A stretch of 64,000 bases of DNA from Mariniblastus sp. (GCA_965250075.1 CBDFNH010000007.1:554709-618708); one strand, 5' to 3'. Counted from the first letter of the stretch, positions 16,035 through 64,000 are shown. Numbers and translations: made by a program. Notes: generated from the sequence alone by a model not told the origin.

Positions 16035-16961
16035 GGAACCCCGCCGCGTTAGCAAGGACCCGAGCGCAAGCGAGAAAAAGGGAACCCGCCGCGTTAGCAA
16101 GGACCCGAGCGCAAGCGAGAAAAAGGGAACCCGCCGCGTTAGCAAGGACCCGAGCGCAAGCGAGAAAAGGGAACCCGCCGCGTTAGCAAGGACCCGAGCG
16201 CAAGCGAGAAAAAGGAACCCGCCGCGTTAGCAAGGACCCGAGCGCAAGCGAGAAAAGGGAACCCGCCGCGTTAGCAAGGACCCGAGCGCAAGCGAGAAAA
16301 AGGGAACCCGCCGCGTTAGCAAGGACCCGAGCGCAAGCGAGAAAAAGGAACCCGCCGCGTTAGCAAGGTCCCGAGCGCAAGCGAGAAAAAGGAACCCGCC
16401 GCGTTAGCAAGGACCCGAGCGCAAGCGAGAAAAAGGGAACCCGCCGCGTTAGCAAGGACCCGAGCGCAAGCGAGAAAAGGGAACCCGCCGCGTTAGCAAG
16501 GACCCGAGCGCAAGCGAGAAAAGGGAACCCGCCGCGTTAGCAAGGACCCGAGCGCAAGCGAGAAAAGGGAACCCGCCGCGTTAGCAAGGACCCGAGCGCA
16601 AGCGAGAAAAGGGAACCCGCCGCGTTAGCAAGGACCCGAGCGCAAGCGAGAAAAAGGAACCCGCCGCGTTAGCAAGGACCCGAGCGCAAGCGAGAAAAGG
16701 GAACCCGCCGCGTTAGCAAGGACCCGAGCGCAAGCGAGAAAAGGGAACCCGCCGCGTTAGCAAGGACCCGAGCGCAAGCGAGAAAAAGGAACCCGCCGCG
16801 TTAGCAAGGTCCCGAGCGCAAGCGAGAAAAAGGAACCCGCCGCGTTAGCAAGGTCCCGAGCGCAAGCGAGAAAAAGGAACCCGCCGCGTTAGCAAGGACC
16901 CGAGCGCAAGCGAGAAAAAGGGAACCCGCCGCGTTAGCAAGGACCCGAGCGCAAGCGAGAA
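16035..16961. repeat. tandem array 1: 21 units of 44-46 bp (GGAACCCGCCGCGTTAGCAAGGACCCGAGCGCAAGCGAGAAAA(A)G(G))
   Basis: Unit starts (GAACCC): 16036, 16082, 16127, 16171, 16215, 16259, 16304, 16348, 16392, 16437, 16481, 16525, 16569, 16613, 16657, 16701, 16745, 16789, 16833, 16877, 16922. No unique spacers. Confidence 0.97.
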
Positions 16962-17069
16962 GCAATCCTGACCCGTGCTACCGCATTGCGTTTCTATTCC
17001 ACGGAAAGCAATGACTACGAACGGGCAGAACTTGTTGCCGGACTTCAATCGATTAGACTCAGAGTTGAC

Positions 17070-17843
17070 ATGCAAACTTGTTCACAAAATGACTCGCGCC
17101 AAACACCTATCAGGGATCGCAACCGGGATCTTCCTGTTGCGTTTTTTGCGGCGATCATGCTGTTTCCTTTCGCGCATGAGACAGTCCACGCAAATAGACC
17201 TTTAACACAAGCCGCCGACACAGAGCAAACCGAAACTCAAGATGCCGATATTCAGGGAACACACCAACTCGACCACAATCATCCCGTCTGGTTCGATCAC
17301 GGCTCGTATCTAAAAGATGGCGTCGAGCACGTCGCGGTGCAAACGCTGCCCCAAACCACAACGCTGGAGGCGAAGAATTCGATTGGACGAACGGCTCTCG
17401 GCGCCGTGCGAACCCGGGCCGAGCTATGGACCGGCGACCACGATCCGTCGATCATGGAAAACATCGGCATTGACACGGGATATGTGCTGGCAAACGTTGT
17501 TGATTCGGATCGAACGGAGGTCCGCGCTTATTCCAGCGTCATTGAAACGGGTGTGCCCGGCACAGACGAGACGAAACTTTTTTGCGGATATGCGCAGCTC
17601 CGCCTGACTCCGGATTTCAAGCAGGACGTCATGCAGCGGTGGAAAGAGTACCAAACGCGCAGCCGACTGTTTACAACCGGCGCGATCGCACTCGGCGTGT
17701 TCGGATTGCTGGCGGTTGTGTTTTCCTATCTGAGGCTTAATCATGCCACTCGCGGATTTTACAGCCGCAGAATCATGATGGGGGCGGCGGTTGTAGCGAT
17801 CGTTGTCGTGCTGTTTTGCATTAGCCTGATCAATCACATTTGA
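17070..17843 (+). CDS. hypothetical membrane protein (signal/anchor + two C-terminal TM helices)
   Basis: ATG at 17070 inside ORF 16986..17843. N-terminal hydrophobic LPVAFFAAIMLFPFA. C-terminal TMs AIALGVFGLLAVVFSYL and MMGAAVVAIVVVLFCISLI. No recognisable domain. Confidence 0.55.
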   Translation: MQTCSQNDSRQTPIRDRNRDLPVAFFAAIMLFPFAHETVHANRPLTQAADTEQTETQDADIQGTHQLDHNHPVWFDHGSYLKDGVEHVAVQTLPQTTTLEAKNSIGRTALGAVRTRAELWTGDHDPSIMENIGIDTGYVLANVVDSDRTEVRAYSSVIETGVPGTDETKLFCGYAQLRLTPDFKQDVMQRWKEYQTRSRLFTTGAIALGVFGLLAVVFSYLRLNHATRGFYSRRIMMGAAVVAIVVVLFCISLINHI

Positions 17844-17915
17844 ACCTCGCATCTTGTTTACTGATATTTCGCCTGCTGACTTTTTCCGACTCCTGGTTTT
17901 TTTGAACTCTCCGGA

Positions 17916-19742
17916 ATGCCTGAACTTATCGCTCGAGGAACCGCATCTGACAATCGCTGGCGACGGCGCATTCCTGAAGGGCACGAGATCGTGGTCGGAC
18001 GGACTGTGGCAGGCTGGGCGGTTCCCTGGGACACAAAAATCTCGCGCCGCCATTTTGCGATGCGGCTGACCGGACGTTCGCTGCATGTCAGCACGATCAA
18101 GGACTCCGCGAACCCGGTTTTCTACAACGGGAGAAAAACCTCGACGTTTGATCTTGCGCCCGGCGAGCACTTTGTGATCGGCGACACAACGTTTCGACTC
18201 AGTGACGACCGCGCGTTTGTGACTCTGGACGTCCCTGATCCCGTCCGTCAGCGAACATTCACACATGAGTTTCTTGCCAATGTCCAATATCGCGATGCCG
18301 ATCGGCGGATCGCGGTCCTGAACCGTCTGCCCCGTGTCATCTCCGGCGCGGGCACCGAACAGGATCTGATGATTCACCTTGTCAACATTCTGATCGACGG
18401 AATTCGCAGCGCATCGACAATCGGAGTTGTCCGAATGAATGAAAACGTCAGTTCGTCCGGTGCAGCAATTGAGGTTCTTCACTGGGACCGGAGACAGAAC
18501 GCTGCGGGAGATTTCCAGCCGAGCGAATCGCTGATCCGGCAGGCAATCAGTGAATTCAAGTCCGTTCTGCACGTCTGGAATCAAAACGTCGACAAAACGG
18601 AACCGGCCGCTGAGATTGAGCAAAGTGTTGATGACTCGACGATTGTTCCCCGCCGAAGCGGGCAAAACTACACGATCGATTATGAAAACGACTGGGCCTA
18701 CGTCTGCCCGCTGCCGGGCGAAGTCTGTCGTAGCTGGGGCGTGTACGTTGCCGGCCGAAATCGGAGCGGCAGTGGATCCGATCCACTCTCTCACCCCCGC
18801 GATCTGCAGGGCGATATCAAATTTACGGAGCTGATCAGCGTTACTCTTGCTAACGTGCTGGATCTGAAAAACATGGAGCAGAGGCAATCGAGCCTGCGTC
18901 CGTTTTTTGCTCCCGTTGTTATGCAGGCGATGGCCGATCGGGATCCGGGCGAAGTGCTGACTCCGCGCGAGTGCGACGTATCTGTTTTATTCTGTGACCT
19001 CCGCGGTTTCACTGCGACGTCAGAAGAGATGGCTGACGATTTACTCGGACTGTTGGCACGCGTCAGCGAAACACTCGGGATCATGACCCGGAGTGTGATG
19101 AATCATGGTGGCGTAATCGGCGATTTTCACGGTGACGCTGCGATGGGTTTCTGGGGCTGGCCGATCGACGACCCGGCTGCAATTCTCCGCGCCTGCAATG
19201 CTGCGCTTGATATACAGAGTGAATTGAAACGCATTGCGGCAGACGCAAATTCCCCGCTGCGAGATTTTCAGATGGGAACCGGAATCGCAACCGGACCTGC
19301 TGTCGCGGGAAAAATCGGGACCAGCGATCAGGTCAAGGTCACAGCATTCGGACCCGTTGTGAACCTTGCCTCACGCCTCGAAAGCATGTCGCGCTGGTTC
19401 GCTTCGATGATTTTGACCGATGGCACAACAGCGCGGGGCCTCGACGGCTCTTCACTTGTTAGCGCACGGCGACTGGGACGAGTCCTGCCATTTGGTCTCG
19501 CACGGGAGACAGAAGTTTTTCAGATTTATTTCGAATCAGACAGCCCCGGCAAGGAACATCTGGACAAGTTTGAATCAGCGCTGCGGAATTTCGAATCGGG
19601 GGAATGGCAGACTGCGGCAGCCCGGTTTACTCCGCTGGCAGAGAATGATTCCGGGGCCGCATTTCTGCTCAACCGCATGATCGAAGCAGGAGGTCAGGCT
19701 CCGGATGGTTTTGATGGCATGATCCGGATGGCGGCCAAGTAG
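17916..19742 (+). CDS. FHA-domain class III adenylate/guanylate cyclase
   Basis: 608 aa. N-terminal FHA-like (HEIVVGRT...ISRRHFAMRL...FYNGRK). C-terminal cyclase motifs VLFCDLRGFTATSE, GDFHGDAAMGFWGWP, GIATGPAVAGKIG, FGPVVNLASRLES. Confidence 0.88.
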   Translation: MPELIARGTASDNRWRRRIPEGHEIVVGRTVAGWAVPWDTKISRRHFAMRLTGRSLHVSTIKDSANPVFYNGRKTSTFDLAPGEHFVIGDTTFRLSDDRAFVTLDVPDPVRQRTFTHEFLANVQYRDADRRIAVLNRLPRVISGAGTEQDLMIHLVNILIDGIRSASTIGVVRMNENVSSSGAAIEVLHWDRRQNAAGDFQPSESLIRQAISEFKSVLHVWNQNVDKTEPAAEIEQSVDDSTIVPRRSGQNYTIDYENDWAYVCPLPGEVCRSWGVYVAGRNRSGSGSDPLSHPRDLQGDIKFTELISVTLANVLDLKNMEQRQSSLRPFFAPVVMQAMADRDPGEVLTPRECDVSVLFCDLRGFTATSEEMADDLLGLLARVSETLGIMTRSVMNHGGVIGDFHGDAAMGFWGWPIDDPAAILRACNAALDIQSELKRIAADANSPLRDFQMGTGIATGPAVAGKIGTSDQVKVTAFGPVVNLASRLESMSRWFASMILTDGTTARGLDGSSLVSARRLGRVLPFGLARETEVFQIYFESDSPGKEHLDKFESALRNFESGEWQTAAARFTPLAENDSGAAFLLNRMIEAGGQAPDGFDGMIRMAAK

Positions 19743-19848
19743 AGAGACACCGTCAATGGACGGCGCGAATTCCGGATGAAACTTCCAGTGAACATCTGTT
19801 ACAATCGTGCCGACAACGTCATTCTCCATCGTCATTGCTCGAAAACGC

Positions 19849-20730
19849 ATGTCACGAATCACTCGAAAACAAAACCAGAAACTCGCCGGTAAAAAAGCGA
19901 GTCAGATTTCGTTCAAGTCCACGCCCGGACCGCTCTCTGAAATGACTGAACTCCAGCGTTCGTTGTTTCTTGCTGAGTGCTCAATGATGTCCTATCTTTC
20001 GGTCGAAGAAACCAACAAGGCCGCTGGAAAACTCGGATTCCTCGACGGAAATTTCTACAACAGCGACGGCGCTCAGGCGTACTGGTTTCACAACGAGACG
20101 GACAGCGTGGTTGCCTGTCGCGGAACCGAACCCAATGAATGGAGCGACATTCGCGCTGACGCCAACGCGCTGACTGCGTTGGCGGAAACAGTTGGCAAAG
20201 TCCATCGCGGTTTCAAAAGCGAAGTCGATCAACTCTGGCCGTACCTCGAAGAGAGTCTGGCCGGCAATCAGCGATCGTTGTGGTTCTGCGGCCATTCACT
20301 TGGCGGAGCAATGGCAACGATCTGTGCTGCACGTTGTCTGTTGTCGCACATCAAATCGGAGCCCGATGGTTTGTACACGTTCGGCAGCCCGCGTGTCGGC
20401 TGCCGGAAATACACCAGCTTTGTCAAATTCCCTCACTACCGCTGGGTCAACAACAACGACATCGTCACACGCGTTCCACCGGTCTGGCTAGGGTATCGGC
20501 ACTCAGGAACCGAAATGTATATCAATCGAAGCGGAGTTCTGAAGGATATCAAAGGCTGGCGGCGTTTCAGTGACCGGCTTCAGGGATTCATAAAGGAACT
20601 GACGCGGTTCCGCATCGATCAGCTTTCCGATCATTCGATCGTGGACTACATCAGCATCATTCATCAGATGGTCCGCGATGAACAAAAGTCGGGCATCAAT
20701 CAGTCGATGTCTTCAGAACAAGCAGCATAA
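19849..20730 (+). CDS. class 3 lipase family protein
   Basis: ATG at 19849 (the track start at 19807 is GTG). Nucleophile elbow CGHSLGGAMA, VACRGTEP, YTFGSPRVG, NNNDIVTRVP. Confidence 0.8.
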   Translation: MSRITRKQNQKLAGKKASQISFKSTPGPLSEMTELQRSLFLAECSMMSYLSVEETNKAAGKLGFLDGNFYNSDGAQAYWFHNETDSVVACRGTEPNEWSDIRADANALTALAETVGKVHRGFKSEVDQLWPYLEESLAGNQRSLWFCGHSLGGAMATICAARCLLSHIKSEPDGLYTFGSPRVGCRKYTSFVKFPHYRWVNNNDIVTRVPPVWLGYRHSGTEMYINRSGVLKDIKGWRRFSDRLQGFIKELTRFRIDQLSDHSIVDYISIIHQMVRDEQKSGINQSMSSEQAA

Positions 20731-20900
20731 GAAACGGCAGTTTGTGCAAGTTTGCGCCGCATCCGCGTACGCATTTCGGCAATCAGATTCGGAATGAGCC
20801 GTTTTTTTTCTTGAGCTGCTTGCGGCACTCGATCGTAGCAACGACTAAAATAGAACGAACGAATCAGGAACCCGGATTGACAGCCAGTCGATCGTTCCGG

Positions 20901-22277
20901 ATGTTTCGAGTCCTAACTTGCGTCTGTCGAATGCCGTTACGAGTCCACTGCCCGTCGGGCTGCCATATCCGAATGCCGTCCAATCGCGCAGGAAAGATTG
21001 TGCGCTGTCCGGAATGCAAGGCGACGATCCGGCTTGGCGTTCCGTCATCGACTGAATCCAGCAGCGGCAAACCGATTCCGATGTTTGCCGAACTGGTCGG
21101 ACTGTCCGTCGACAAGTCCGGATTTCCAGACGAACCGGATGTGTTCCCCTCAATCGATCTGACCGCCGGCGATCATCCGCCCGACGAAGCGGTTGCCGGA
21201 ATGAGCAACGAACCGGAAACTGCAAAACAACCGCGGCAAAATCCGCTTCCGACTCTGCCGCCTCCGTCCTCAAAACAGAAACGTAACATTCTGCCGTTCG
21301 AGAATAAGCGTTCCGACCCGCGTGACGCTGCATTTGAAAATCTTGCGCATGAGCAGACAACGCGGGGAACTTCCGAATCCGCCAAAGACGCCGCAACGAG
21401 CAGGAAAAAGAAACGGAAGAAAAATCGCACACGGAAATCATCGGTCTCTTCCGAGGCAACTGAACCGCCCGTCAGCAGAACTTCGGCTGGCGACCCGGCC
21501 AGGCCTAAAGAGCCGGCACCGGTCGGACATGACAAGGCCGCGGCTGAAAAACTACCCGGTGGCGGTTTCTCGTTGCCCGTTCCCGCTCCTCCGGTCGGCA
21601 AGGCCCGCCACAAGAAGCAAATTACAACACAACGCTTGTCATCGACTCCGTCGACTGACCGGGTCAACGAGCACGTGCCCGATCCGTCCGTCGCCAGTCC
21701 AATCGGCTTGTCGGACGCTATCCAGATCGATACCGAATTCAAAGTCGCGGAGGTCGAACAGCCTTCACCCGCAACGATTCGGGCAAGGGCGAGGGAATCG
21801 AGGTCAGACCGGATGATTCTGACCCGGTTTATCGCTGTTTGTATTCTGATTCTCGGAGTGATAAACCTTGCTCCGGCGATCTCACAGTGGCTGGCATGGA
21901 GCAGCGGCACCGAGTCCGGTGCGACGCCGCGCTGGATTTATATCCTGATGTTTCTCGCAGCCTTGCATCTGGTTTATGCGATCTACCTGATACAAATCCC
22001 TGACTGGTCGGCGCTGATTTCGGTCAGCATCGCAATGCTCGCGTTTGCATTTGTGTTCGGCGTTGTTTCAACCGGCCTGGTGCTCGGCGGGTCGCAGGGA
22101 ACCATTGCCCGGACGCTCCAGTTGGCGACCGTTCTAACCGGACCGGCAAGTATCTGGTGCGTGGCAATGTTGTGCCTGGCAACGCTGGTCAGCTATATGG
22201 GCGGCCGCGAAGCAATCAACTGGCATCGAGCCGATCGTTTGCTCGCCGAGATCATTTCTTCGAAGGCGCGTCCATGA
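20901..22277 (+). CDS. zinc-ribbon membrane protein (hypothetical), Pro/Ser/Lys-rich linker and 4 C-terminal TM helices
   Basis: ATG at 20901 (MFRVLTCVCRMPLRVHCPSGCHIRMP...RCPECKATIRL). KKKRKKNRTRK basic patch. Its stop overlaps the next start (ATGA at 22274-22277). Confidence 0.65.
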   Translation: MFRVLTCVCRMPLRVHCPSGCHIRMPSNRAGKIVRCPECKATIRLGVPSSTESSSGKPIPMFAELVGLSVDKSGFPDEPDVFPSIDLTAGDHPPDEAVAGMSNEPETAKQPRQNPLPTLPPPSSKQKRNILPFENKRSDPRDAAFENLAHEQTTRGTSESAKDAATSRKKKRKKNRTRKSSVSSEATEPPVSRTSAGDPARPKEPAPVGHDKAAAEKLPGGGFSLPVPAPPVGKARHKKQITTQRLSSTPSTDRVNEHVPDPSVASPIGLSDAIQIDTEFKVAEVEQPSPATIRARARESRSDRMILTRFIAVCILILGVINLAPAISQWLAWSSGTESGATPRWIYILMFLAALHLVYAIYLIQIPDWSALISVSIAMLAFAFVFGVVSTGLVLGGSQGTIARTLQLATVLTGPASIWCVAMLCLATLVSYMGGREAINWHRADRLLAEIISSKARP

Positions 22278-22948
22278 TACTGTTGCTCGTGCCGACGCAG
22301 AGGGAAGCCGATTTGCTTGAGAAGCATCTTCAGTTTCAATGGCAATCCGGTATCTGCGAATTACGCCTCTGCGGATTCGGCCCTGTGATTTCCGCTGCGA
22401 CGTCGGCACGGCTGATCGAACAGAAGCAACCGTCGACGATAATTCTTGCCGGCATCGCCGGAAGTTACTCTCCTGATCGACCGCCCGGCAGCGCGTCGGT
22501 TTTCAGCCACGTCACCTGTTACGGAATCGGTGTCGGCACCGGTTCGGCATTCAAAACCGCAGCCGGTTCGGGTTGGCCGCAACTGCAATCTGCAAATTCA
22601 AGCGCAAACAAAGACGACTCGATCGAACTACACATTCCCGAAGGCCTATCGGAAGTTGTCTCAGATGAACTGCTTACTGTCACATCAGCGGCGGCCGGTC
22701 CGAATGACGTACAGCTGCGAATGGAGAAGTTTCCAAGTGCAGAAGCAGAAGAGATGGAGGGATTTTCCGTTGCCGCTGCATGTCACTTGACCGGCGTCCC
22801 CGTTACGATCATTCGCGGCATTTCGAACGTCGCCGGCGATCGCGATCAATCAAACTGGAAAATCGAATCCGCAATGAAGGCAGTGGCCCGACTGGTTGAC
22901 CGAGCCGTATTAATAGCAGCCGAAAAAACAACCACGGATAAACGCTGA
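22274..22948 (+). CDS. mqnB: futalosine hydrolase-like nucleosidase (PNP/UDP family)
   Basis: ATG at 22274 (MILLLVPTQREADLL). EMEGFSVAAACHLTGVPVTIIRGISNVAGDRD. Lies next to mqnD. Confidence 0.7.
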   Translation: MILLLVPTQREADLLEKHLQFQWQSGICELRLCGFGPVISAATSARLIEQKQPSTIILAGIAGSYSPDRPPGSASVFSHVTCYGIGVGTGSAFKTAAGSGWPQLQSANSSANKDDSIELHIPEGLSEVVSDELLTVTSAAAGPNDVQLRMEKFPSAEAEEMEGFSVAAACHLTGVPVTIIRGISNVAGDRDQSNWKIESAMKAVARLVDRAVLIAAEKTTTDKR

Positions 22949-23012
22949 TGAACACGGATAAAGTTGGACTGGAAAATCCGTGTTGATCCGTGTTGATCCG
23001 TGTCCATCCGTG
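22933..23012. repeat. cluster of CACGGAT / ATCCGTG heptamers (2 forward, 4 reverse)
   Basis: CACGGAT at 22933 and 22953. ATCCGTG at 22976, 22986, 22996 and 23006 with 10-bp phasing. Straddles the mqnB stop and the mqnB-mqnD spacer. Confidence 0.85.
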
Positions 23013-23059
23013 GTTCAAAACTGGCAGCCGGACCAAGAACACCTTAATTCTCTTCGACA

Positions 23060-23923
23060 ATGACTCAAAAGAAAATCAAGCTCGCGATTTCGACTTGCCC
23101 GAACGACACGTTCGCATTTCACGGAATCCTCACCGGTGCTGTCGATACACGCGGATTGAACTTCGATATCGAATTGCTGGACATCGCAGCCTTGAACAAA
23201 GGACTGTTCGCTGGAAGGTTTGATGTGGCCAAAGCGAGTTTCCATGCTGCTGCTCTGTTAACTGACCGGGCGCAGGTCCTGCCGTCCGGTTCCGCGATTG
23301 GATTCGGAGTCGGACCGTTGTTGCTGGCTGCAAGAGAAAATTCTTCGCCGGAGACCGAACCGCTTGCGAAGACACTTTGCCCGGGACAGCACACGACGGC
23401 CACTCTGTTGCATCGAATTTTCTACCCCGATGCCGCGCAGCCTGAACACGTTGTGTTTTCCGACATCATGCCCTCGCTGGAGCAGGGGAGGGCGGACTTC
23501 GGTGTGTGCATTCATGAAGGAAGGTTTACCTGGAAAGAGTCCGGATTGTTTCTGATAGAAGACCTCGGGACTCGCTGGGAGAAAGAATCAGGAATGCCGC
23601 TGCCACTGGGCGGGATTCTGGCCCGTCGGAATCTGGGCAGCAAAACGATCGCGACCGTCGCCCGTGTGATTCACGACTCCATTCAGTTTGGCCTGGCAAA
23701 CCGCGATCAGACGCTTCCGACGATGCGACGATATGCGCAGGAATCAAGCGACAATGTTCTGATGAGCCACGTCGATTTGTATGTCAACGAATGGACACTC
23801 GACCTTGGGCGCGCCGGCAGCGACGCACTCGCTCATCTTTTCCAACGCGCGGTTGAGTGCGGACTCGTACCAGGCGGGACTGAACCGCTTGAGATTGCAA
23901 CACTCGAGAACGATCGCGAGTGA
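23060..23923 (+). CDS. mqnD: 1,4-dihydroxy-6-naphthoate synthase (futalosine pathway)
   Basis: 287 aa, ATG confirmed. Characteristic KLAISTCPNDTFAFHG N-terminus and GSAIGFGVGPLLLA. Confidence 0.8.
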   Translation: MTQKKIKLAISTCPNDTFAFHGILTGAVDTRGLNFDIELLDIAALNKGLFAGRFDVAKASFHAAALLTDRAQVLPSGSAIGFGVGPLLLAARENSSPETEPLAKTLCPGQHTTATLLHRIFYPDAAQPEHVVFSDIMPSLEQGRADFGVCIHEGRFTWKESGLFLIEDLGTRWEKESGMPLPLGGILARRNLGSKTIATVARVIHDSIQFGLANRDQTLPTMRRYAQESSDNVLMSHVDLYVNEWTLDLGRAGSDALAHLFQRAVECGLVPGGTEPLEIATLENDRE

Positions 23924-23945
23924 CAGCCTGCATCTGCGATGCGGT

Positions 23946-28260: not shown

Positions 28261-28327
28261 CGATTCAGGCATGGGCGATTCAGGCATGGGCGATTCAGGC
28301 ATGGGCGATTCAGGCATGGGCGATTCA
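28261..28327. repeat. 15-bp tandem repeat CGATTCAGGCATGGG x4.5
   Basis: Perfect copies at 28261, 28276, 28291 and 28306, plus a partial copy at 28321-28327. Lies 50-115 nt upstream of the EF-hand gene start. Confidence 0.95.
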
Positions 28328-37876: not shown

Positions 37877-37918
37877 GTGAATAACTAATTGTGAATAACA
37901 AATTGTGAATAATTAGTG
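37877..37918. promoter_or_regulatory. AT-rich block, 14-bp period GTGAATAAC(T/A)AATT x3
   Basis: GTGAATAA at 37877, 37891 and 37905. Flanked by inverted CTAATT (37885)/AATTAG (37911). Lies 60-100 nt upstream of the GcvT-like start at 37816. Confidence 0.3.
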
Positions 37919-46417: not shown

Positions 46418-47809
<1,392 letters not shown>

Positions 47810-55952: not shown

Positions 55953-55997
55953 TTCACCAACTCCAACTCTTTGTATTTACAAATCAGGCATGCGAAC

Positions 55998-56019: not shown

Positions 56020-56035
56020 AGCCATCTTTCGACGA

Positions 56036-56677: not shown

Positions 56678-56734
56678 GACTCAACTCGCTATTTGGATTC
56701 AACTTCAAGCAACACGCGAACAGTCGCGACCACG

Positions 56735-57454
56735 TTACTTCAGCATGTTTGTTTCTTTGACAATCAGGTAGCCGCCATTGGGGCCGGGCACCGCACCTTC
56801 AACCAGCAACAGATTGTTTTCGGCATCAACTTTGACCAGATTCAGATTGCGAACCGTGGCCTGCTTTCCGCCATAACGACCCGCCATCCGACGGCCCTTC
56901 ATGACACGACCCGGAGACGCACTCATACCGGTGCCACCCGCGTGGCGATGACATTTCTTGACTCCGTGCGTTGCACGCTGACCGGAGAAATTATGCCGCT
57001 TCATCACACCGGCGTAACCGCGACCCTTTGAAGTGCCGCTAACATCGACCGAATCGATACCTTCAAGAACATCGACCTTGATCTCCTGGCCGACTTCAAG
57101 CTCATCAAACCCGCCACGAAATTCGCGAACGAACTTTTTGGGCTCACAACCGGCCTTCGCAACAGCATCAACTCCGGCGAGAGCGCGATTCTTTGACCGC
57201 TTGCTCTTGATGTCGGCAACGTGACCGCGTTCTGAGCGGGAAGCCTGTGACTGACGGGTCCGCTTGTCTTTTTGCGGACGCTTTTTATCAAGATAACCCA
57301 ACTGAACAGCGCTATAGCCGTCGCGGTCCTCGGTGCGGACCTGCAAAACGTGGCAGGGGCCGGCCTGAATTACAGTAACCGGAGTTGCAACACCTGTCTC
57401 AGGGTGCAGAACCTGCGTCATCCCGACCTTGCGGCCGAGTATTCCTTTTGCCAT
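56735..57454 (-). CDS. rplC: 50S ribosomal protein L3
   Basis: MAKGILGRKVGMTQV...GTSKGRGYAGVMKRHNFSG. Confidence 0.96.
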   Translation of the reverse strand: MAKGILGRKVGMTQVLHPETGVATPVTVIQAGPCHVLQVRTEDRDGYSAVQLGYLDKKRPQKDKRTRQSQASRSERGHVADIKSKRSKNRALAGVDAVAKAGCEPKKFVREFRGGFDELEVGQEIKVDVLEGIDSVDVSGTSKGRGYAGVMKRHNFSGQRATHGVKKCHRHAGGTGMSASPGRVMKGRRMAGRYGGKQATVRNLNLVKVDAENNLLLVEGAVPGPNGGYLIVKETNMLK

Positions 57455-57589
57455 GACTATTTCGCCTTGTAATGTTGGGCTGTCCGGAGGAAGCGCGACC
57501 TATGTCGCCTTATCCCCGGGACGTCCGTTCATATATTCTTGCTTCATTATTTACGCAAAAAGCAGCCGATGATGACTGCTCGTTAATAT

Positions 57590-57913
57590 CTACTTGGTTG
57601 ATGCTTTGATCTTGATCTCGACACCGGCTGGAAGACTCAGCTTATTAAGGGCTTCGATTGTCTTTGCGGTCGCCTGCACAATATCGATCAGCCGTTTGTG
57701 AGTCCGGATTTCGAACTGTTGACGGGCTTTCTTATTGACAAACGGGCTGGACAAAACCGTATAACGCTCAATTCGAGTCGGCAGCGGAATCGGGCCATGC
57801 ACTTCCGAGTGAGTCCGTTTTGCGGCTTCCACAATTTCCTGAGCGCTCTGGTCCAGGATCGAATGGTCGTAAGCTTCCATTCGAATTCGGATTACTTCAT
57901 GAATTGCAGCCAC
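57590..57913 (-). CDS. rpsJ: 30S ribosomal protein S10
   Basis: GTG start. [27 protein letters not shown]...GPIPLPT...[12 protein letters not shown]. Confidence 0.95.
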
Positions 57914-58210
57914 TAAGATTCACCCCAACGAGTTCTGCCACTCACCAAACTTCGTACGAATACCACAAAACCGGTATCAAAGGTGCGAAAGATCGTGAGC
58001 TGTTTGCATCCGGCAATCACAGCGCTGTCAGGGAATGAGCCGGAAAAAGCCTGCAATTTGCAGACTAAGCGACTCGCAGATCAACCCACGAACCAGCGCA
58101 AGAACGCCTCCTCCGGCTCTCGCCGAAGGTGAAACCGCTAAATTTATGACCCACGATGAGAACCGTCAACCGCAAAAACCGGGAAAACGGTCCTTGGATC
58201 AAGCCGTTGG

Positions 58211-58507
58211 TTATTCGGAGTCCGAAGGAACACTGCCACCATTTCCCTTGGTTATTTCCACCACCTGGCAACAACGGCGAACGAGTGACGTCAGAACATC
58301 ATCGATACATCTACTATCGTCACCTTCCCAAAATCCGTGCAGGCTATCGAGCTCCTGCTTCAAGTCGTCAACCAGGACCTGAACTGACTCGACGTCGATC
58401 TCACCTCTTCCAGAAGGAATCTTCAGTACGTCCATTACCACTTCCTTGAGCGAATTCAAGTTCTGCAATTCTTCAAATATTTCGTCATCAGTCCCCTCTG
58501 CCGCCAA
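58211..58507 (-). CDS. hypothetical acidic protein (98 aa, TTG start in track; start uncertain)
   Basis: ORF only. No motif recognised. Lies between the MscS-like gene and the rpsJ leader on the same strand. Confidence 0.3.
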   Translation of the reverse strand: MAAEGTDDEIFEELQNLNSLKEVVMDVLKIPSGRGEIDVESVQVLVDDLKQELDSLHGFWEGDDSRCIDDVLTSLVRRCCQVVEITKGNGGSVPSDSE

Positions 58508-58534
58508 GACATCGATACATTGGTTAAGGTGCGA

Positions 58535-59413
58535 TTACTCACCCGTAGATTCGATCTCGCTTTTCACCTGTGCTATTTTTGCCTCCGGCATGTACGTATG
58601 GCTGGTGGGAGCAGCTTGGTAATGCCTACGTTTTCGGGCAGCCGATTTAGCTTTTGAGGCTACTTTCGGAATTGTTAGCCGATTTGCATCTATCCGACGT
58701 TGAGCTACGAAAGCAGGCGAGACAATTTCGACCTGATTTTCATGCAACTCATCCAGTAGTTTTTCAATGTCGGCGAGTGTTCCAGTCACACGATAACTAA
58801 TCGAGTAGTCTCCCAGTTCATCAACATGCACGACCGCTTCATTGAGCCCGGCCCTTTCGGTTGCCGCGCGCAGCAAACACTGACTAACCGTGGCATGATG
58901 CACGTCATAGCCCAGAGACACCTTGCTGGTAATAACGGTCCCCCTTTTTTTGAGAAATTTCGCAGGCGTTCCAGACATGTAGGTGTATGGAACGATAATA
59001 GAGTCGTTGTGAACGTTTTGAAGCTTTAGATGAAACAAGCCTTTTTCGACAACCTTCCCGAAATGATCTCCGACCTCAACTCAATCTCCGTCACCAAAAT
59101 TCTCGGCTCGGTTAACAAGGAAACCGGCCATTGCGTTTGCCACAAATGATGATGACGAGATGGCCAGCAACGATGAAATGATGAGCCCGAAAATGGTAGC
59201 AAACAGAGCCCGATTGGACACATCAACCTCGGCAAACAGGATTGCAACAATACCAACAAACGAATAGCAAACGCAAAGCGAAGGGAAGATCAACTTCTGG
59301 TCACCTTCCGGCTTGGGTATCTTCCGATTCAAACGGACTCTCGTCAGCCAGATCGCAAGCCCAACCAGGACTAAAACCGCAAATACAAACAGAATTGAAT
59401 ACAAAAAAGACAT
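58535..59413 (-). pseudogene. MscS-family mechanosensitive channel interrupted by one in-frame TGA (59081-59083)
   Basis: ORF 59081..59452 gives 3 TM helices then ...ANAMAGFLVNRAENFGDGD. After the TGA the same frame continues VEVGDHFGKVVEKGLFHLKLQNVHNDSIIVPYTYM... (ORF 58535..59038). The combined ~291 aa is typical for MscS. Confidence 0.75.
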
Positions 59414-60005
59414 CCGGCATCCTTTCGCGCATTGAACCAGTTTGGATTGCAATGAATTGGAACCGAGAGGCGAACGCCTGTCAAAAAGAGACCCTGTTGG
59501 CTGGGGATCAAAATGCCACGGTCCAACGTTGACAACGACTTCATCGCCAAACCCCTTTACCCGATAAAGCGATCAACCGACGATGGCAACTCTCAAAAAT
59601 CAACTCTGGAGAGTTGAACAGAACGAACAAGTGGCGCACCCAATCAGTCAGCCGTCCGGCAAACGCCCCTTCGATGACTATTGCCAAAGACGATTGCCAA
59701 AGTACTTCCTCTCGAAGTAAATATGACGACCAGTTGGGTTGTTACGCTACAGGCGCAGACTCGCCTCGGAATCGACGCCCTCGTAAAATCTGAACCACGA
59801 AAAAGCTTCGGCAAGCGGATGATTGAGCAACATATACACGCTCTCCGGCTTCGAGCGAGCCGAATGTTTGGATCCGTAAGATGTTGTACGCTGTGGACTT
59901 AACTGAATTGCCGGTAGTTGGCAAATTTTCCCGGGCGAGTACGCTGGTCAGACGTTACGATTTATCAGTTGGAACGGCGGATAAATTTCGTAGAATATGC
60001 AGCAT

Positions 60006-60275
60006 CGGAAAGGAAACCCGACGCGTGAGCGAGGGACGTGGTCGAAGACTACCGGAAAGGAAACCCGACGCGTGAGCGAGGGACGTGGTCGAAGACTACC
60101 GGAAAGGAAACCCGACGCGTGAGCGAGGGACGTGGTCGAAGACCACCGGAAAGGAAACCCGACGCGTGAGCGAGGGACGTGGTCGAAGACTACCGGAAAG
60201 GAAACCCGACGCGTGAGCGAGGGACGTGGTCGAAGACCAAACCGTCCTTGCTCACGCGGCGGGTTTCCTGGTAGC
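60006..60275. repeat. tandem array 2: 5 x 47 bp (CGGAAAGGAAACCCGACGCGTGAGCGAGGGACGTGGTCGAAGACTAC) plus one inverted diverged unit
   Basis: Unit starts 60006, 60053, 60100, 60147, 60194. Unit 3 has GACCAC. The inverted unit TCCTTGCTCACGCGGCGGGTTTCCTGGTAG lies at 60245-60274. Confidence 0.95.
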
Positions 60276-60379
60276 GCTTCGCTTATTCCGGATTTCATTC
60301 GTCTTGCTGAAGCTCGCGGCGTTGCTAACGCGGCACCAAAGCAATTTTCCAATCGAGCCGCCTGTCACTTGGATCAAAA

Positions 60380-61111
60380 ATGAAAACGCTAGATCGAATT
60401 TGCAAGTCGTTCGCCGTGACACTCATTGCTTTGACATCATTTGCTCATGCGCAAAATCCGCAGCAAACGGGCGTGACCGTACAACTGCCGACTCAGTCCA
60501 TTTTCCGAATCGATACGGTGGTCGGAGTTCCTGACGGCGGATCGATGGTTCTGGGCGGAGTCAACAGCTTTGGTTCATCCAGCATCAGTCGAGGTACACC
60601 GGGACTGTCCGGGATTCCCGGTGCCAACCGCTTGTTCCGCAATCAGGGGATCGGGAACGAGATCAATTCCAGCGGTGCCCGGGCGCATGTCCAGATTCTG
60701 ATCCGCGAAGAGCTGGAAGCCGATGTGCTGGCCCAAGCACGACAGATGCAATCTGTGCAATCACTGATCAACCTGAACGGATCCCCGGAAGTCCGTGCTC
60801 AGGCCGATTTCCTGACGCGACATATGGGCGGCTCGGCTAATCGCGGCCCAAACGGATTTGGTTACAGTTCGAATTCGCCTGTGCCAGGTTCGGATGGATA
60901 TCATGCCGAAACGACCGGTCAGAATTATGCACCGGGATATCCGAGCCAGTCCAATTCGATTTCCGGCCGGATTTTTGACATGCCGCAAGCCAGCAGATCG
61001 CCAGTTCCGACAAACAATAACGATCAGTTTTTTCCAGCTCGGCCGCGCCCGCAAACCGACGGGTATCGACCTCCGAACTTCAACGGAACGCGATTTAACA
61101 ACCGTCGGTAG
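60380..61111 (+). CDS. short secreted protein with secretin C-terminal-type motif
   Basis: Signal peptide MKTLDRICKSFAVTLIALTSFAHAQ. VGVPDGGSMVLGGV...GTPGLSGIPGANRLFRN...AHVQILIRE resembles the conserved end of GspD/PilQ secretins. Pro/Asn-rich tail. Confidence 0.5.
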   Translation: MKTLDRICKSFAVTLIALTSFAHAQNPQQTGVTVQLPTQSIFRIDTVVGVPDGGSMVLGGVNSFGSSSISRGTPGLSGIPGANRLFRNQGIGNEINSSGARAHVQILIREELEADVLAQARQMQSVQSLINLNGSPEVRAQADFLTRHMGGSANRGPNGFGYSSNSPVPGSDGYHAETTGQNYAPGYPSQSNSISGRIFDMPQASRSPVPTNNNDQFFPARPRPQTDGYRPPNFNGTRFNNRR

Positions 61112-61133
61112 GCCGGGGTTCATCGTTCATTAC

Positions 61134-61262
61134 GTAGCGTTGGCATCCTGCCGACGCTACTTCTCAACCTACATCGGCAGGATGCCGACGCTACTTCTCA
61201 ACTCACGTCGGCATCCTGCCGACGTTACTTCTCAACCTGCGTCGGCAGGATGCCAACGCTAC
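61134..61262. repeat. 4 x 34-bp tandem cluster of REP-like hairpins with alternating TCC/GGA loops
   Basis: Hairpins at 61134-61160 (12-bp stem, loop TCC), 61172-61194 (GGA), 61205-61228 (TCC) and 61240-61262 (GGA). Each of the first three is followed by CTACTTCTCAAC. Confidence 0.9.
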
Positions 61263-61374
61263 AAGCTTATTCTGAATTGGTTTTGCGTCTATGATGGAAG
61301 GCGGCGCAAGGACCAGGCAAGGTCGCTCTGAAGGTCAATTCTTACCGGCAACTTACCAACGGCAGCGCGACACG

Positions 61375-62064
61375 ATGATCGAAGTTGAGCAACTCGAATT
61401 CACGTATCCGCGCAGCGAATTCCGGCTGGTGATCGATCGGCTCACGATTGCGTCCGGCGAAAAAGTTGCCATCGTCGGCCCAAGTGGCAGCGGAAAAACG
61501 ACGCTACTCAACTTGATCTCCGGAATTTCGACGCCCGAGTCGGGGATGATTTCGGTCGATGGGAATCGTGTCTCTGCGATGAATGACGGCGCACGCAGAA
61601 ACTTCCGCATCTCAAACATCGGGATGGTGTTTCAACAGTTTGATCTCGTGGAATACCTGAACTCGCTCCAGAATATTCTCCTGCCGTATCAGATTAATGG
61701 CTCGTTGAACATAAATGCCGACATCCGCGAAGGAGCCGCTGAACTGGCTGCCTCGGTTGGCCTGGGTGACAAACTCAGGCGATTCCCGAACCAACTGAGC
61801 CAGGGCGAACAACAGCGGGTCGCAATCTGCCGGGCGCTGGTGAACGAACCGAGTTTACTGCTGGCCGATGAGCCAACAGGAAACCTCGATCCGGCCAGCA
61901 AGAAAACCGTACTCGAAATTCTATTCGACCAGGCCGATCGGGCGGGCAGGACGCTGGTCGTCGTGACGCACGACATGAGCATCCTCGACGGGTTTGATCG
62001 CAGCATCGACTTCGAGGTGTTTCGCCAACCGGTTGCGGCGGCATCATCGGGAGCATCACAGTGA
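61375..62064 (+). CDS. ABC transporter ATP-binding protein (MacB/LolD-like)
   Basis: ATG at 61375 (MIEVEQLEFTY). GPSGSGKTT, LSQGEQQRVAICRAL, LLLADEPTGNLD. Confidence 0.92.
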   Translation: MIEVEQLEFTYPRSEFRLVIDRLTIASGEKVAIVGPSGSGKTTLLNLISGISTPESGMISVDGNRVSAMNDGARRNFRISNIGMVFQQFDLVEYLNSLQNILLPYQINGSLNINADIREGAAELAASVGLGDKLRRFPNQLSQGEQQRVAICRALVNEPSLLLADEPTGNLDPASKKTVLEILFDQADRAGRTLVVVTHDMSILDGFDRSIDFEVFRQPVAAASSGASQ

Positions 62065-63236
62065 AAGGACCGATGCTGCTGGCCTGGCGATACATCTGCT
62101 ACCACAAAATGAAAACGCTGATTCTGATCGCGTGCATTTTCCTGACGATCATTCTGCCGGTCGCGATTAACATTATCATTCGCCAGTTCGACAGACAGAT
62201 ACTCGCCCGGGCGGACAGCACTCCGGCCGTGATCGGTGCCAGGGGAAGCGATCTGGATCTGACGCTCGGGACGATCTACTTCAAACACAACAACGCCGGC
62301 ACGATCCCGTTTTCAGAAACGGAAACAGTTGAACAGTTCGGGATCGCAATTCCTGTTTACTCGCGGTTCACAGCAAGCGGGTATCCGGTCGTCGCGACGA
62401 CGCTGGACTATTACGACTTTCGCCGGATGCAAATTGAACGCGGCAACATGCTGACGATGCTGGGCGATTGCGTGCTCGGTCAAAAAACGGCTGAGACGCT
62501 CGGGTTGAATCCTGGCGACCGTTTGCTTTCGGACGCTGAAGCAACACTGGATATCGGCGGAATCACACCTATCAAAATGCGCGTCACAGGAATCTTCGCG
62601 GCGACCGGAACGGCTGACGACAACGCCGTGTTTGTTGATTTGAAAACCGCCTGGGTGATCGAAGGGCTCGGTCACGGTCATCAATCACTTGAGGATGAAA
62701 CCGACGAAGGGATGGTCCTGTCGCGCACCGAAGATGGCATCGTCGCCAGCGCTGCGGTCAGGCCCTATCTCGAAATCAATGAAACCAACATCGATTCGTT
62801 TCACTTTCATGGCGACCCCGGCGGTTTTCCAGTGGGCGGAATCATCGCGCTAACGACTGATCCGAAAAATGAACGACTGCTCGAAGGCAGATTCCATGGT
62901 GAAGGAGCGACGGCCCAGTTCGCCAGACCGGGCAAAGTGGTGCGCGAGTTGATGTCGCTGGTCTTTAAGGTTAAGTCTGTGTTCGACGCGAACTCGATTC
63001 TGATTGCGTTGTCGACCGGGATGTTGTTGCTGCTGGTGATTCTACTGTCATTGAAATTGCGACAACGAGAAATGCAAACGATGTTCCAGCTCGGAGCCAG
63101 CCGCAGCACAACAGCGCTGTTGCAGATCTGGGAGATGGGTTTTATTTTCCTGATCAGCGGTTTGCTGGTTGCCGGTGCAACCTGGTTGCTGCTCCAATAT
63201 TCAGGAGACTTTGTGCAACGGTTGCTGCTGGGCTAG
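62061..63236 (+). CDS. ABC transporter permease, FtsX/MacB-type
   Basis: GTG at 62061 overlaps the ATPase stop (alternative ATG at 62073). N-terminal TM, ~250-aa periplasmic domain, 3 C-terminal TMs (ILIALSTGMLLLLVILLSL...). Confidence 0.85.
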   Translation: MKGPMLLAWRYICYHKMKTLILIACIFLTIILPVAINIIIRQFDRQILARADSTPAVIGARGSDLDLTLGTIYFKHNNAGTIPFSETETVEQFGIAIPVYSRFTASGYPVVATTLDYYDFRRMQIERGNMLTMLGDCVLGQKTAETLGLNPGDRLLSDAEATLDIGGITPIKMRVTGIFAATGTADDNAVFVDLKTAWVIEGLGHGHQSLEDETDEGMVLSRTEDGIVASAAVRPYLEINETNIDSFHFHGDPGGFPVGGIIALTTDPKNERLLEGRFHGEGATAQFARPGKVVRELMSLVFKVKSVFDANSILIALSTGMLLLLVILLSLKLRQREMQTMFQLGASRSTTALLQIWEMGFIFLISGLLVAGATWLLLQYSGDFVQRLLLG

Positions 63237-63312
63237 TCGTTCAAGACAGAAAATACCAGCAGGTGATACTAGCCGTTTGGCGATGTCAAGAAATAGAAGT
63301 AACGTAAAATCA

Positions 63313-63375
63313 AAACACAGAGGCACAAAGGACACGAAGTCTCGCTTCGTCGCTTTCCGCTGTGCCTCTGTGTTT
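63313..63375. terminator. compound hairpin (15-bp outer stem, nested 6-bp hairpin), possible terminator/REP
   Basis: AAACACAGAGGCACA (63313-63327) pairs perfectly with TGTGCCTCTGTGTTT (63361-63375). Inner hairpin ACGAAG-TCTCG-CTTCGT (63334-63350). Confidence 0.5.
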
Positions 63376-63415
63376 CAAAACTGACGACGGTGGATAGTGA
63401 ATGTCGTGTTTTTCA

Positions 63416-64000
63416 TTCCTTGCTCACGCGGCGGGCTACTGTTTTCGTTCCTTGCTCACACGGCGGGTTACTGTTTTCGTTCCTTGCTCACGCGGCGGGC
63501 TACTGTTTTCGTTCCTTGCTCACGCGGCGGGTTACTGTTTCGTTCCTTGCTCACGCGGCGGGTTACTGTTTCGTTCCTTGCTCACGCGGCGGGTTACTGT
63601 TTCGTTCCTTGCTCACGCGGCGGGTTACTGTTTCGTTCCTTGCTCACGCGGCGGGTTACTGTTTCTTTCCTTGCTCACGCGGCGGGCTACTGTTTTCGTT
63701 CCTTGCTCACGCGGCGGGTTACTGTTTCGTTCCTTGCTCACGCGGCGGGTTACTGTTTCGTTCCTTGCTCACGCGGCGGGTTACTGTTTCGTTCCTTGCT
63801 CACGCGGCGGGTTACTGTTTCGTTCCTTGCTCACGCGGCGGGTTACTGTTTCGTTCCTTGCTCACGCGGCGGGTTACTGTTTCGTTCCTTGCTCACGCGG
63901 CGGGTTACTGTTTCGTTCCTTGCTCACGCGGCGGGTTACTGTTTCGTTCCTTGCTCACGCGGCGGGTTACTGTTTCTTTCCTTGCTTGCGCGGCGGGTTA
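63416..64000. repeat. tandem array 3: at least 19 units of 31/32 bp (TTCCTTGCTCACGCGGCGGGTTACTGTTTCG), truncated by the window end
   Basis: Unit starts 63416, 63448, 63480, 63512, 63543, 63574, 63605, 63636, 63667, 63699, then every 31 bp to 63978. The 32-bp variants carry GGGCTACTGTTTTCG. Confidence 0.97.

Follow-up and report, generated by a model that had tools for sequence, protein, structure and literature searches.

REP, BIME and REPIN repeats are short, GC-rich, mostly intergenic, multi-copy sequences found singly, in tandem clusters, and in inverted dimers whose copies are 13-150 bp apart and can form long hairpins, and in all these respects the 21-nt core described here is like them. 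However, REP units are imperfectly palindromic and bear a GTAG or CGTC tag, whereas a single unit of the core is not palindromic and carries neither tag, and a classical REP was therefore rejected. Moreover, a REPIN is conserved as a whole, while the loops of the core dimers are unrelated; REPs are usually species- or genus-specific, while the core spans a phylum and reaches the Gammaproteobacteria; and long, purely direct runs of about 20 units, as found here, are atypical for REPs. TIR repeats, which are non-palindromic, about 20-30 nt long and present as singles, dimers and clusters, were described from genomes with GTAG REPs, including that of R. baltica (Di Nocera et al. 2013, PMC3733652), and tandem reiteration has been documented for both REP and TIR repeats, in REP clusters together with variable-length flanking DNA (PMC3733652). 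The core is likewise non-palindromic and forms single copies, dimers and clusters, and its sequence is absent from PMC3733652 and its supplements. In TIR/TIRYT systems, however, the repeats are the terminal inverted repeats on either side of a Y1 transposase gene, an arrangement not observed for the core in the window and the genome-scan loci.

Dispersed families of non-coding long-unit satellites were found in only Leptospira interrogans and Methanocella conradii in a previous survey (Subirana & Messeguer 2019, PMC6749651). Such families, like the arrays reported here, comprise several related head-to-tail arrays per genome, which are intergenic and have periods that are not multiples of 3. 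Unlike the surveyed families, the present arrays share just the 21-nt core, differ in period, and belong to a core that also occurs outside arrays. The mycobacterial MIRU types also have a common core and differing unit lengths, but, unlike the arrays here, MIRUs are found within operons and have overlapping stop and start codons.

Three arrays in one chromosomal window

The window, that is, the whole 64-kb stretch of DNA analysed, has the content of ordinary chromosomal DNA; a ribosomal-protein/secY operon occupies 46-57 kb. Tandem Repeats Finder detected three head-to-tail arrays in it (Table 1). As the original prediction proposed, the arrays have different periods and one common core: TCCTTGCTMACGCGGCGGGTT, with at most 3 mismatches, matched 46 times in the 64-kb window against 0.01 matches expected by chance, namely 21 times on the minus strand in array 1, five times on the minus strand in array 2, once on the plus strand at 60245-60265 and 19 times on the plus strand in array 3. 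At the same threshold, no match was found in the whole 64 kb outside the three arrays and the inverted unit. Array 3 continues past the end of the window, and thus its 19 units are a minimum.

Table 1. Arrays, associated elements and flanking genes in the window
Feature	Position	Strand	Tandem Repeats Finder	Description
Sulfotransferase gene	15114-15881	-		One flank of array 1
Array 1	16035-16961	-	16035-16961; period 44, 20.9 copies, 97% matches	21 core copies, TCCTTGCTAACGCGGCGGGTT on the - strand; unit of core module A and probable diverged module B (CTCGCTTGCGCT-CGGG)
Membrane-protein gene	16986-17843	+		Other flank of array 1
Gene	59081-59452	-		Flank of array 2, divergent
Array 2	60006-60240	-	60006-60237; period 47, 4.9 copies, 98% matches	5 units of 47 bp; core variant CCCTCGCTCACGCGTCGGGTT, tail TCCTTTCC and array-specific segment GGTAGTCTTCGACCACG
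Long imperfect hairpin (predicted)	60199-60269			Arms 60199-60222 and 60246-60269
Single inverted unit	60245-60274	+		TCCTTGCTCACGCGGCGGGTTTCCTGG, facing the final unit of array 2 head-to-head
Degenerate core remnant	60322-60334	+		GCGTTGCTAACGCGGCACC; family-profile E-value 0.21, alone not significant
Secretin-like gene	60380-61111	+		Flank of array 2, divergent
Array 3	63411-64000	+	63411-64000; period 31, 18.9 copies, 97% matches	At least 19 units, 31 bp x14 and 32 bp x4; core TCCTTGCTCACGCGGCGGGTT followed by ACTGTTTCGT

Unit lengths are 44/45 bp in array 1 (44 bp x15, 45 bp x5), 47 bp in array 2 and 31/32 bp in array 3, although some of the 44/45 and 31/32 differences are of homopolymer length and could be sequencing errors, and the copy numbers are those of the assembly. 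None of these lengths is divisible by 3, and the units abut without unique spacers, both as predicted. CRISPR, which the prediction had also set aside, was rejected, since the units abut, the non-core part is identical in all units of an array, and spacers are absent. Units within an array are 97-98% identical, and the few variants are grouped in blocks, with T/A substitutions at unit position 1 of array 1 and C/T substitutions in array 3; in array 1, four unit variants follow one another in the order BCDDAACAAAABCDBACABB. This fits the view of related satellites that have apparently expanded recently. The variation lies mostly in the tails and at family-variable positions, and less at the invariant positions of the core. 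The GC content of the arrays is 57-58%. Stop codons are present in every frame of arrays 1 and 2; the sense strand of array 3 has none, but with units of 31/32 bp the reading frame changes from one to the next, in agreement with the claim that the repeats are not coding. The arrays are young and non-coding, and with several related runs of head-to-tail 31/32-, 44/45- and 47-bp units they have the make-up of a minisatellite or prokaryotic satellite family.

The 44-bp unit of array 1 probably consists of two diverged 22-nt modules (~2 x 22). The original prediction had taken part of the unit for an array-specific filler, but this part, CTCGCTTGCGCT-CGGG, probably represents the same module again in diverged form. 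The GCTTGCGC variant is also present in the last visible unit of array 3 and at loci L029, L034 and L103 of other genomes.

The core of array 2 had been described as matching at about 18 of 21 positions with one indel; the three differences from the cores of the other arrays are real, but all are substitutions and there is no indel. Array 2 and the inverted unit beside it form a layout of n direct units plus one inverted, which recurs at loci L084 (4 x 33 bp + 1) and L041 (twice), in Rhodopirellula and a Planctomycetaceae MAG. The last unit and the inverted unit together are predicted to form a strong hairpin, with arms of 24 nt that are 92% complementary and 23 nt apart; the modelled fold of 60150-60280 has a free energy of -68.6 kcal/mol (z -7.3) on the minus strand and -70.9 kcal/mol (z -6.6) on the plus strand. 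The earlier statement that no convincing hairpin exists within the units is therefore right for arrays 1 and 3, which fold no more stably than shuffled sequence (z +0.1 to +1.1), but not at this end of array 2.

Array 3 begins 175 bp past the stop codon of a MacB-type permease gene (62061-63236), directly downstream of the operon and in sense orientation, and an unrelated hairpin (63313-63375) sits 36 bp before it. Arrays 1 and 2, as predicted, fill divergent intergenic regions, according to the orientations of their flanking genes. A cluster of GTAG REPs is also present in the window, at 61134-61262.

The core as a dispersed repeat

The core, in the form CCTTGCTNACGCGGCGGG(YT), is a dispersed, mostly intergenic repeat present in at least 35 Planctomycetota genomes and five Granulosicoccaceae MAGs. 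An exact-match scan with one genome per species yielded more than 114 loci; among the matches listed, about 35 Planctomycetota genomes contribute 77 loci and the five Granulosicoccaceae MAGs 12, and the flanks of the copies are lineage-specific. A family profile built from sequence alone collected 237 members in 604 kb of related loci, with invariant positions CCT.GCT.ACGC..CGGG.T. The pyrimidine- and T-rich tail, which was predicted to follow the core always, does so in the three arrays but is missing from the family in other genomes.

Elsewhere, the core was found solitary, in inverted pairs with unrelated loops, and in short tandem arrays with periods of 33-364 bp, including a 38-bp-period array at the end of a metagenome contig. 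According to rough gene calls, 102 dispersed copies are intergenic and 23 intragenic, with no orientation bias relative to genes (25 vs 28); nor is any type of intergenic region favoured. Among 52 tandem arrays with a period of at least 20 in the fetched loci, 17 contain the core where 1.6 would be expected, an enrichment that is inflated to some degree because the loci were chosen for holding an exact core. The core is thus not a ubiquitous REP lacking conservation and any arraying tendency, which would have spoken against the prediction; rather, it is conserved across the phylum, and a core family prone to tandem reiteration exists. No other genome showed arrays as long as about 20 units, but short-read assemblies would collapse them, and those of relatives show 2-4 copies only or break at such arrays. 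The source genome has unusually long arrays of a planctomycete repeat. No core was found in 22 kb of the nearest relative found.

Being dispersed, multi-copy and mainly extragenic, the core is like REP and BIME in these traits, although the window itself holds three loci only. Its self-complementarity amounts to a possible 6-pair stem with 3 G.U pairs at most. Among 119 close pairs, head-to-head inversion is commonest (51, against 22 tail-to-tail and 46 direct), and in Schlesneria the two arms of a pair agree, in 55 of 72 cases, at the variable positions (40.4 +/- 4.5 expected; 55 was reached in 5 of 5000 partner shuffles), whereas such co-variation is absent in Granulosicoccaceae. Unlike those of REPINs, which would be conserved, the loops of the 18 Schlesneria dimers are unrelated in sequence and length (13-145 nt). 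The core is one arm of a REP-like repeat that apparently has not been described before. The claim that it is not a simple REP stands insofar as the unit is not palindromic, but the core behaves as one arm of a REP/REPIN/TIR-type repeat. In Rhodopirellula loci, GTAG REPs adjoin the core, in mosaics with other repeat modules.

Several further classes were rejected. The unrelated internal sequences of the 18 Schlesneria dimers, together with the lack of direct repeats beside the arms in the flanks inspected, exclude a MITE; in a few of these dimers, complementarity extends some bases beyond the arms. DNA uptake sequences (DUS/USS) occur at about 1 per kb, inside genes too, whereas the core is found at three loci in 64 kb, in none of the window genes and nowhere in those 22 kb of the relative. 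The boundary consensus of integron attC sites is RYYYAAC ... GTTRRRY, which by inspection the outer dimer ends CACACYAACCCG and CGGGTTRGTGTG do not fit.

Origin of the arrays

We consider it fairly probable that the arrays are minisatellites seeded by a REP/TIR-like interspersed element and recently expanded. Three resident copies of the core would each have been amplified with a different length of neighbouring sequence: the core with 10 nt of neighbour sequence may have given the 31-bp unit, the core with a second diverged module the 44-bp unit, and the core with its tail and a small hairpin-like segment the 47-bp unit. Amplification may have proceeded by replication slippage or unequal sister-strand exchange once two copies adjoined, or copies may have been made by a core-recognising enzyme, for which a HUH tyrosine transposase acting on single strands would be the leading candidate, by analogy with REP/RAYT and TIR/TIRYT. 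Such an enzyme is a conjecture, since a regular expression for a Tyr/NP motif with an upstream HUH motif found no RAYT/Y1-transposase motif in six-frame ORFs of the window and the genome-scan loci, and no recurrent transposase family lies near cores in the window and about 800 kb of loci. Arrays of this origin would presumably have no dedicated cellular role, yet at arrays 1 and 2 they would still alter the promoter spacing of the divergent flanking genes, and array 2 would place a strong predicted hairpin at its site.

It is unlikely that the arrays serve, in the manner of iterons, centromeres or decoys, a DNA-binding protein that is sequence-specific and conserved among Planctomycetota. In that case the protein would bind each core, and a run of about 20 cores would assemble it into a nucleoprotein complex or titrate it, with an effect on neighbouring promoters or chromosome organisation. 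Such a role is suggested by a 20-nt motif that is non-palindromic, information-rich and invariant at the same positions in many lineages, by array variation that mostly spares those positions, and by the location of arrays 1 and 2 in divergent promoter regions; the distances from module to module, about 22 and 31 bp, may also correspond to nearly 2 and 3 helical turns. However, the 47-bp period sets successive sites on opposite faces of the helix, periods range from 31 to 364 bp across loci and genomes, which argues against a fixed binding geometry, and the dispersed family prefers neither promoter regions nor an orientation. Array 1 is also not kept, being absent, like the adjacent sulfotransferase gene, from the syntenic site of the nearest relative found, which also speaks for the seeded-minisatellite reading.

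Iteron plasmids carry direct repeats together with one inverted repeat, a layout formally shared by array 2. The arrays further resemble plasmid iterons in their direct repeats of about 20 nt, in the modules of array 1 that follow each other every 22 bp or so and in the inverted copy near array 2, but here about 20 or more copies occur and many loci in many genomes carry the motif. Genes for an initiator, a partition protein or a regulator do not adjoin the arrays, whose neighbours encode a sulfotransferase, a membrane protein, a secretin-like protein and a MacB-type ABC transporter, and no TTATCCACA-like DnaA box was found near array 1 or in the 10 kb around arrays 2 and 3. Lacking an initiator gene, DnaA boxes and an AT-rich unwinding element, and lying, with 57-58% GC, among chromosomal housekeeping genes, the arrays were rejected as an iteron-type origin, as was an iteron motif confined to one origin, because the core occupies three sites in the window and many in dozens of genomes. 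The predicted likeness to iteron-type binding-site arrays is not supported.

An action of the arrays as RNA, either as runs of weak terminator-like hairpins or as a CsrB-like sponge, appears very improbable. On the core strand, CUUGCU could pair with GGCGGG through G.U pairs ahead of the U-rich tail, and in arrays 1 and 3 a consensus scan called a terminator-like site in each unit (22 and 21 sites in the two regions scanned, where shuffled sequence gave 5.3 and 6.6); a sponge, transcribed from the opposite strand, would expose about 20 GCAAGGA motifs, and AAGGA is present in the complement of every core. Compared with intrinsic terminators, however, the stems need 3 G.U pairs and the fold z scores exceed zero, and array 3 is the only one that follows an operon, in the sense direction, whereas arrays 1 and 2 are upstream of the genes they point to. 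The missing tail and the lack of orientation bias elsewhere likewise disagree with this reading, no Rfam family matched the arrays, and the link to CsrA is pure conjecture.

That the arrays or their lengths are mis-assemblies of a short repeat has only the slightest probability: the assembly-derived copy numbers, the homopolymer differences typical of long-read error and the few copies or breaks in relatives' short-read assemblies would allow it, but the three arrays are independent and bordered by unique sequence at both ends (at one end in array 3), they carry base-substitution variants in blocks, the source contig measures 861 kb, and relatives independently show the same arraying tendency.

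With regard to minisatellites seeded by an interspersed element, 17 near-invariant positions across a phylum and a gammaproteobacterial family are unusual for a selfish repeat, and could reflect a host function.

Tandem arrays and their shared core

All three tandem arrays of the original prediction are real; Tandem Repeats Finder recovers each of them. The core TCCTTGCTMACGCGGCGGGTT has 46 matches with up to three mismatches in the 64-kb window (0.01 expected), including 21 in array 1 and five in array 2 (- strand), 19 in array 3 (+ strand), and one at 60245-60265 (+ strand), in the inverted unit beside array 2. Outside the arrays, a looser pattern and a family profile gave no significant core match in the 64 kb, and the profile placed a weak, degenerate remnant (E = 0.21) downstream of the inverted unit.

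Coordinates of the arrays, their neighbours, and other features in the window
Feature	Position	Strand	Details
Array 1	16035-16961	- (core)	period 44, 20.9 copies, 97% matches
Array 1 neighbour, sulfotransferase gene	15114-15881	-	
Array 1 neighbour, small membrane-protein gene	16986-17843	+	
Array 2	60006-60237	- (core)	period 47, 4.9 copies, 98% matches
Array 2 neighbour, membrane-protein gene	59081-59452	-	
Array 2 neighbour, secretin-like gene	60380-61111	+	
Degenerate core remnant	60322-60334		
Array 3	63411-64000, ends at window edge	+ (core)	period 31, 18.9 copies, 97% matches
Array 3 upstream neighbour, MacB-type ABC transporter operon	61291-63236	+	
GTAG-type REP cluster	61134-61262		four palindromes, alternating orientation
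Hairpin	63313-63375		20-nt arms, 90% complementary
Lower-GC stretch	58400-59800		GC 0.47-0.50 vs ~0.55
14-bp tandem repeat	37877-37912		2.6 copies, intergenic
15-bp tandem repeat	28261-28327		4.5 copies, perfect

Unit lengths are 44/45 bp in array 1, 47 bp in array 2, and 31/32 bp in array 3, with few unit variants, arranged block-wise (BCDDAACAAAABCDBACABB in array 1 and BDBAAAACBAAAAAAAAC in array 3). For the array 2 core, formerly aligned with an indel, three substitutions suffice to explain the difference from the other cores, with no need of an indel. As well, the part of the array 1 unit that had been regarded as an array-specific filler, CTCGCTTGCGCT-CGGG, corresponds to a diverged family variant, CCTCGCTTGCGCTGCGGG of locus L029 from another genome, minus one deletion. 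Similar GCTTGCGC variants are also present in comparison loci L034 and L103, and the last unit of array 3 shows the GCTCACGC to GCTTGCGC change as in the array 1 filler. Because of this resemblance to family variants, the 44-bp unit most likely consists of two diverged modules of ~22 nt.

The core as a dispersed family

An exact-match scan for CCTTGCTNACGCGGCGGG, with one genome per species, returned at least 114 loci. Among the matches listed, 77 loci came from ~35 Planctomycetota genomes, such as Pirellulaceae, Planctomycetaceae, Schlesneria, Rhodopirellula, Stieleria, Mariniblastus, and Anatilimnocola, and 12 from five Granulosicoccaceae (Gammaproteobacteria) MAGs. The other 25 listed loci belong to unrelated GC-rich genomes, mostly as single matches and largely within ORFs, and are read as chance matches. 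Viral contigs carried seven single, scattered matches, the plasmid collection had none, and Rfam contained no family for the core at the gathering threshold or E <= 1. A tRNA or tmRNA as source of the core was rejected.

The core is nearly invariant between lineages, and its flanking sequence is lineage-specific. An iterated sequence-only profile identified 237 family members in 604 kb of scan loci, with the consensus (C)CCT[T/C]GCT-N-ACGC-[G/T/A][G/T]-CGGG-[T/C]T-[A/G]. According to a rough gene caller based on codon-position GC, 102 members are intergenic and 23 intragenic; their orientation is unbiased with respect to co-directional genes (25 vs 28), and no type of spacer (convergent, divergent, or co-directional) is preferred.

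Core pairs no more than 400 bp apart comprise 51 head-to-head inverted (gaps mostly 13-145 nt), 22 tail-to-tail, and 46 direct pairs. The inverted pairs of Schlesneria possess arms of ~27 nt (CACAC-YAACCCG..GCGTGAGCGAGG and CCTCGCTCACGC..CGGGTTR-GTGTG) around loops that are unrelated in sequence. The two arms of a pair agree at the variable positions in 55 of 72 cases vs 40.4 +/- 4.5 in shuffled partners, a value reached in 5 of 5000 partner shuffles, and no such co-variation was detected in the inverted pairs of Granulosicoccaceae. In the Schlesneria MAG L092, four inverted core dimers are spaced 500-900 bp apart (1589-4137), and a 696-aa ORF runs through two of them. Pfam matches this ORF in its C-terminal PP2C part only, so that it may reflect either insertion in frame or mere read-through of elements free of stop codons. 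In the Pirellulaceae MAG L048 (1-1750), inverted composite repeats of ~188 bp, core included, bracket a two-gene unit that looks ArsR-like and SRPBCC-like by reading of the sequence, with no transposase there.

Direct reiteration of the core is frequent, at periods that vary from array to array (33, 36, 38, 51, 66, 84, 102, 118, 141-142, 173, 181-182, 188, 275, and 364 bp). The core lies in 17 of 52 tandem arrays with a period of at least 20 in the scan loci, which were chosen for the exact core, vs 1.6 expected from core density outside arrays. The layout of array 2, namely a run of direct copies and then a single inverted one, is also found in Rhodopirellula sp. JB055 (L084; 4 x 33 bp plus 1) and twice in the Planctomycetaceae MAG L041. 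The core family is prone to tandem duplication, mostly intergenic, and indifferent to strand and context. A metagenome scan for at least three tandem cores gave one match, a 38-bp-period array broken off at the contig end; short-read assembly probably fails to recover long arrays.

Three loci from Granulosicoccaceae MAGs (L061 6522-7166, L093 7483-7998, and L106 351-1301) contain tandem units of 181-183 bp with an inverted core pair per unit, and the tail GGGTTTCCTGG is common to these arrays and the inverted unit beside array 2. Since the gammaproteobacterial arrays carry the same core and tail, horizontal spread of the repeat family, or of its recogniser, is suggested.

Origin of the arrays and competing explanations

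All three arrays are minisatellites that probably grew from an interspersed element of the REP/TIR type, whose core would have been amplified with a different length of adjacent DNA in each case. In L115, the locus from the nearest relative found, the gene order kinase, small membrane protein, cyclase, and lipase is kept, while array 1 and its sulfotransferase neighbour have no counterpart there (L115 8861-9600 vs window 15114-16985), and the 22-kb L115 locus contains no copy of the core. High unit identity, block-wise variants, and the lack of array 1 at this syntenic site indicate that the arrays expanded recently and locally. Two adjacent copies, once present, could have been extended into an array through slippage or unequal exchange. 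Alternatively, because the core recurs in arrays of many different periods, the first duplications might have been made by a putative core-recognising enzyme, by analogy with RAYT and TIRYT systems conceivably a Y1 HUH transposase. No Y1 HUH transposase gene was found in the window or the scan loci (~800 kb), no transposase family was recurrent near the cores, and none lay between inverted core pairs, where the genes are ordinary (ArsR-like, SRPBCC-like, and dehydratase by reading of the sequence, and HicB-like by Pfam). Comparison locus L090 holds one IS3-like integrase fragment without a clear link to cores.

Like REP, BIME, and TIR repeats, the core family pairs dispersed copies with tandem clusters. 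Two features that define REPs are a palindromic unit, which the core family lacks, and a RAYT link, for which no gene was found in the window or the scan loci. The family is also unusually conserved between lineages. Four GTAG-type REP palindromes (GTAGCGTYGGCA-TCC/GGA-TGCCGACGCTAC, separated by TTCTCAACYNN) form a BIME-like cluster, flanked by the secretin-like gene and the ABC-transporter operon, and represent another family than the core. This cluster is only 900 bp from array 2, and GTAG REPs also lie beside the core in Rhodopirellula loci, so the core shares a mosaic repeat landscape with them. Core strings yielded only unrelated primer matches in the searchable literature and are not listed in the main REP survey, supplements included. 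Dispersed families of non-coding satellites with long units were reported in only two species among 261 prokaryotic reference genomes (PMC6749651). For a family of this kind the arrays offer a concrete starting point, namely an interspersed repeat reiterated repeatedly with different unit boundaries.

The reading of the arrays as iterons or a protein-binding platform keeps some weight, because a non-palindromic motif of 20 nt, invariant throughout the phylum, resembles a protein recognition site. However, no marker of an origin, partition locus, or regulator is present near the arrays, and array geometry is not conserved between loci. That the core is nearly invariant in a whole phylum, and also in a marine family of Gammaproteobacteria unrelated to it, points to a putative recognition factor that is itself conserved. 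It is also conceivable, though we consider it rather unlikely, that the core is the site of a putative protein common to Planctomycetota and transferred to Granulosicoccaceae, which itself makes head-to-tail copies of adjacent DNA, for instance through HUH-type nick-and-rejoin or rolling-circle re-initiation on single-stranded DNA. In that case the arrays would be satellites that amplify themselves rather than slippage products. As a variant, the protein might be a host DNA-binding factor, with the long arrays as titration or organising sites.

An assembly artefact is unlikely to explain the existence of the arrays and could have affected their copy number. That they act as RNA, as weak terminators or sponge RNA, is a reading whose only basis is a consensus scan, and it is contradicted by the fold statistics, by the family's lack of orientation bias, and by the T-rich tail, which accompanies the core in all three arrays as predicted but is missing from the family in other genomes. 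Neither strand of arrays 1 and 3 shows RNA structure (fold z +0.1 to +1.1), consistent with the earlier statement that units lack hairpins, whereas at the end of array 2 a long hairpin (-68.6 kcal/mol, z -7.3) results from pairing of the last unit with the inverted unit. No sigma-70 promoter was found within the units by consensus scan, and sigma-54 and ECF-type spacing did not fit by eye. A replication origin by array 2 was rejected, as the skew tracks gene strand across the window and no DnaA boxes were found.

Surroundings of the arrays

The window represents ordinary chromosomal DNA from a Pirellulales-like planctomycete, with a ribosomal-protein/secY operon at 46-57 kb. The adenylate cyclase adjoining array 1 shares at most 54% identity with any other database protein, and its named relatives include Mariniblastus proteins (~50-51%). 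By reading of both sequences, a separate 219-aa gene in L115 appears to correspond to the C-terminal membrane part of the 821-aa kinase of the window.

The sense strand of array 3 has zero stop codons in all three frames. Core elements create long spurious ORFs, such as the open ORF of at least 203 codons across 63390-64000, which gene callers may mistake for a repeat protein. In planctomycete assemblies they may also account for contig breaks and odd 'hypothetical proteins'. For strain typing, the arrays are candidate VNTR-like markers (variable repeat number).

Close to both the permease stop codon and array 3, and between them, sits a hairpin unrelated to the core (arms AAACACAGAGGCACAAAGGA and TCCGCTGTGCCTCTGTGTTT), whose motif CACAGAGGCACA is nearly missing from the rest of the window. 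The lower-GC stretch beside array 2, where gene orientation switches, holds a local minimum of cumulative GC skew. Beside the phosphofructokinase gene, the 14-bp tandem repeat holds two TTATTCACA sites, each one mismatch off a DnaA box. Finally, the 15-bp repeat CGATTCAGGCATGGG may be coding, given its ORF overlap and a period that is a multiple of three.
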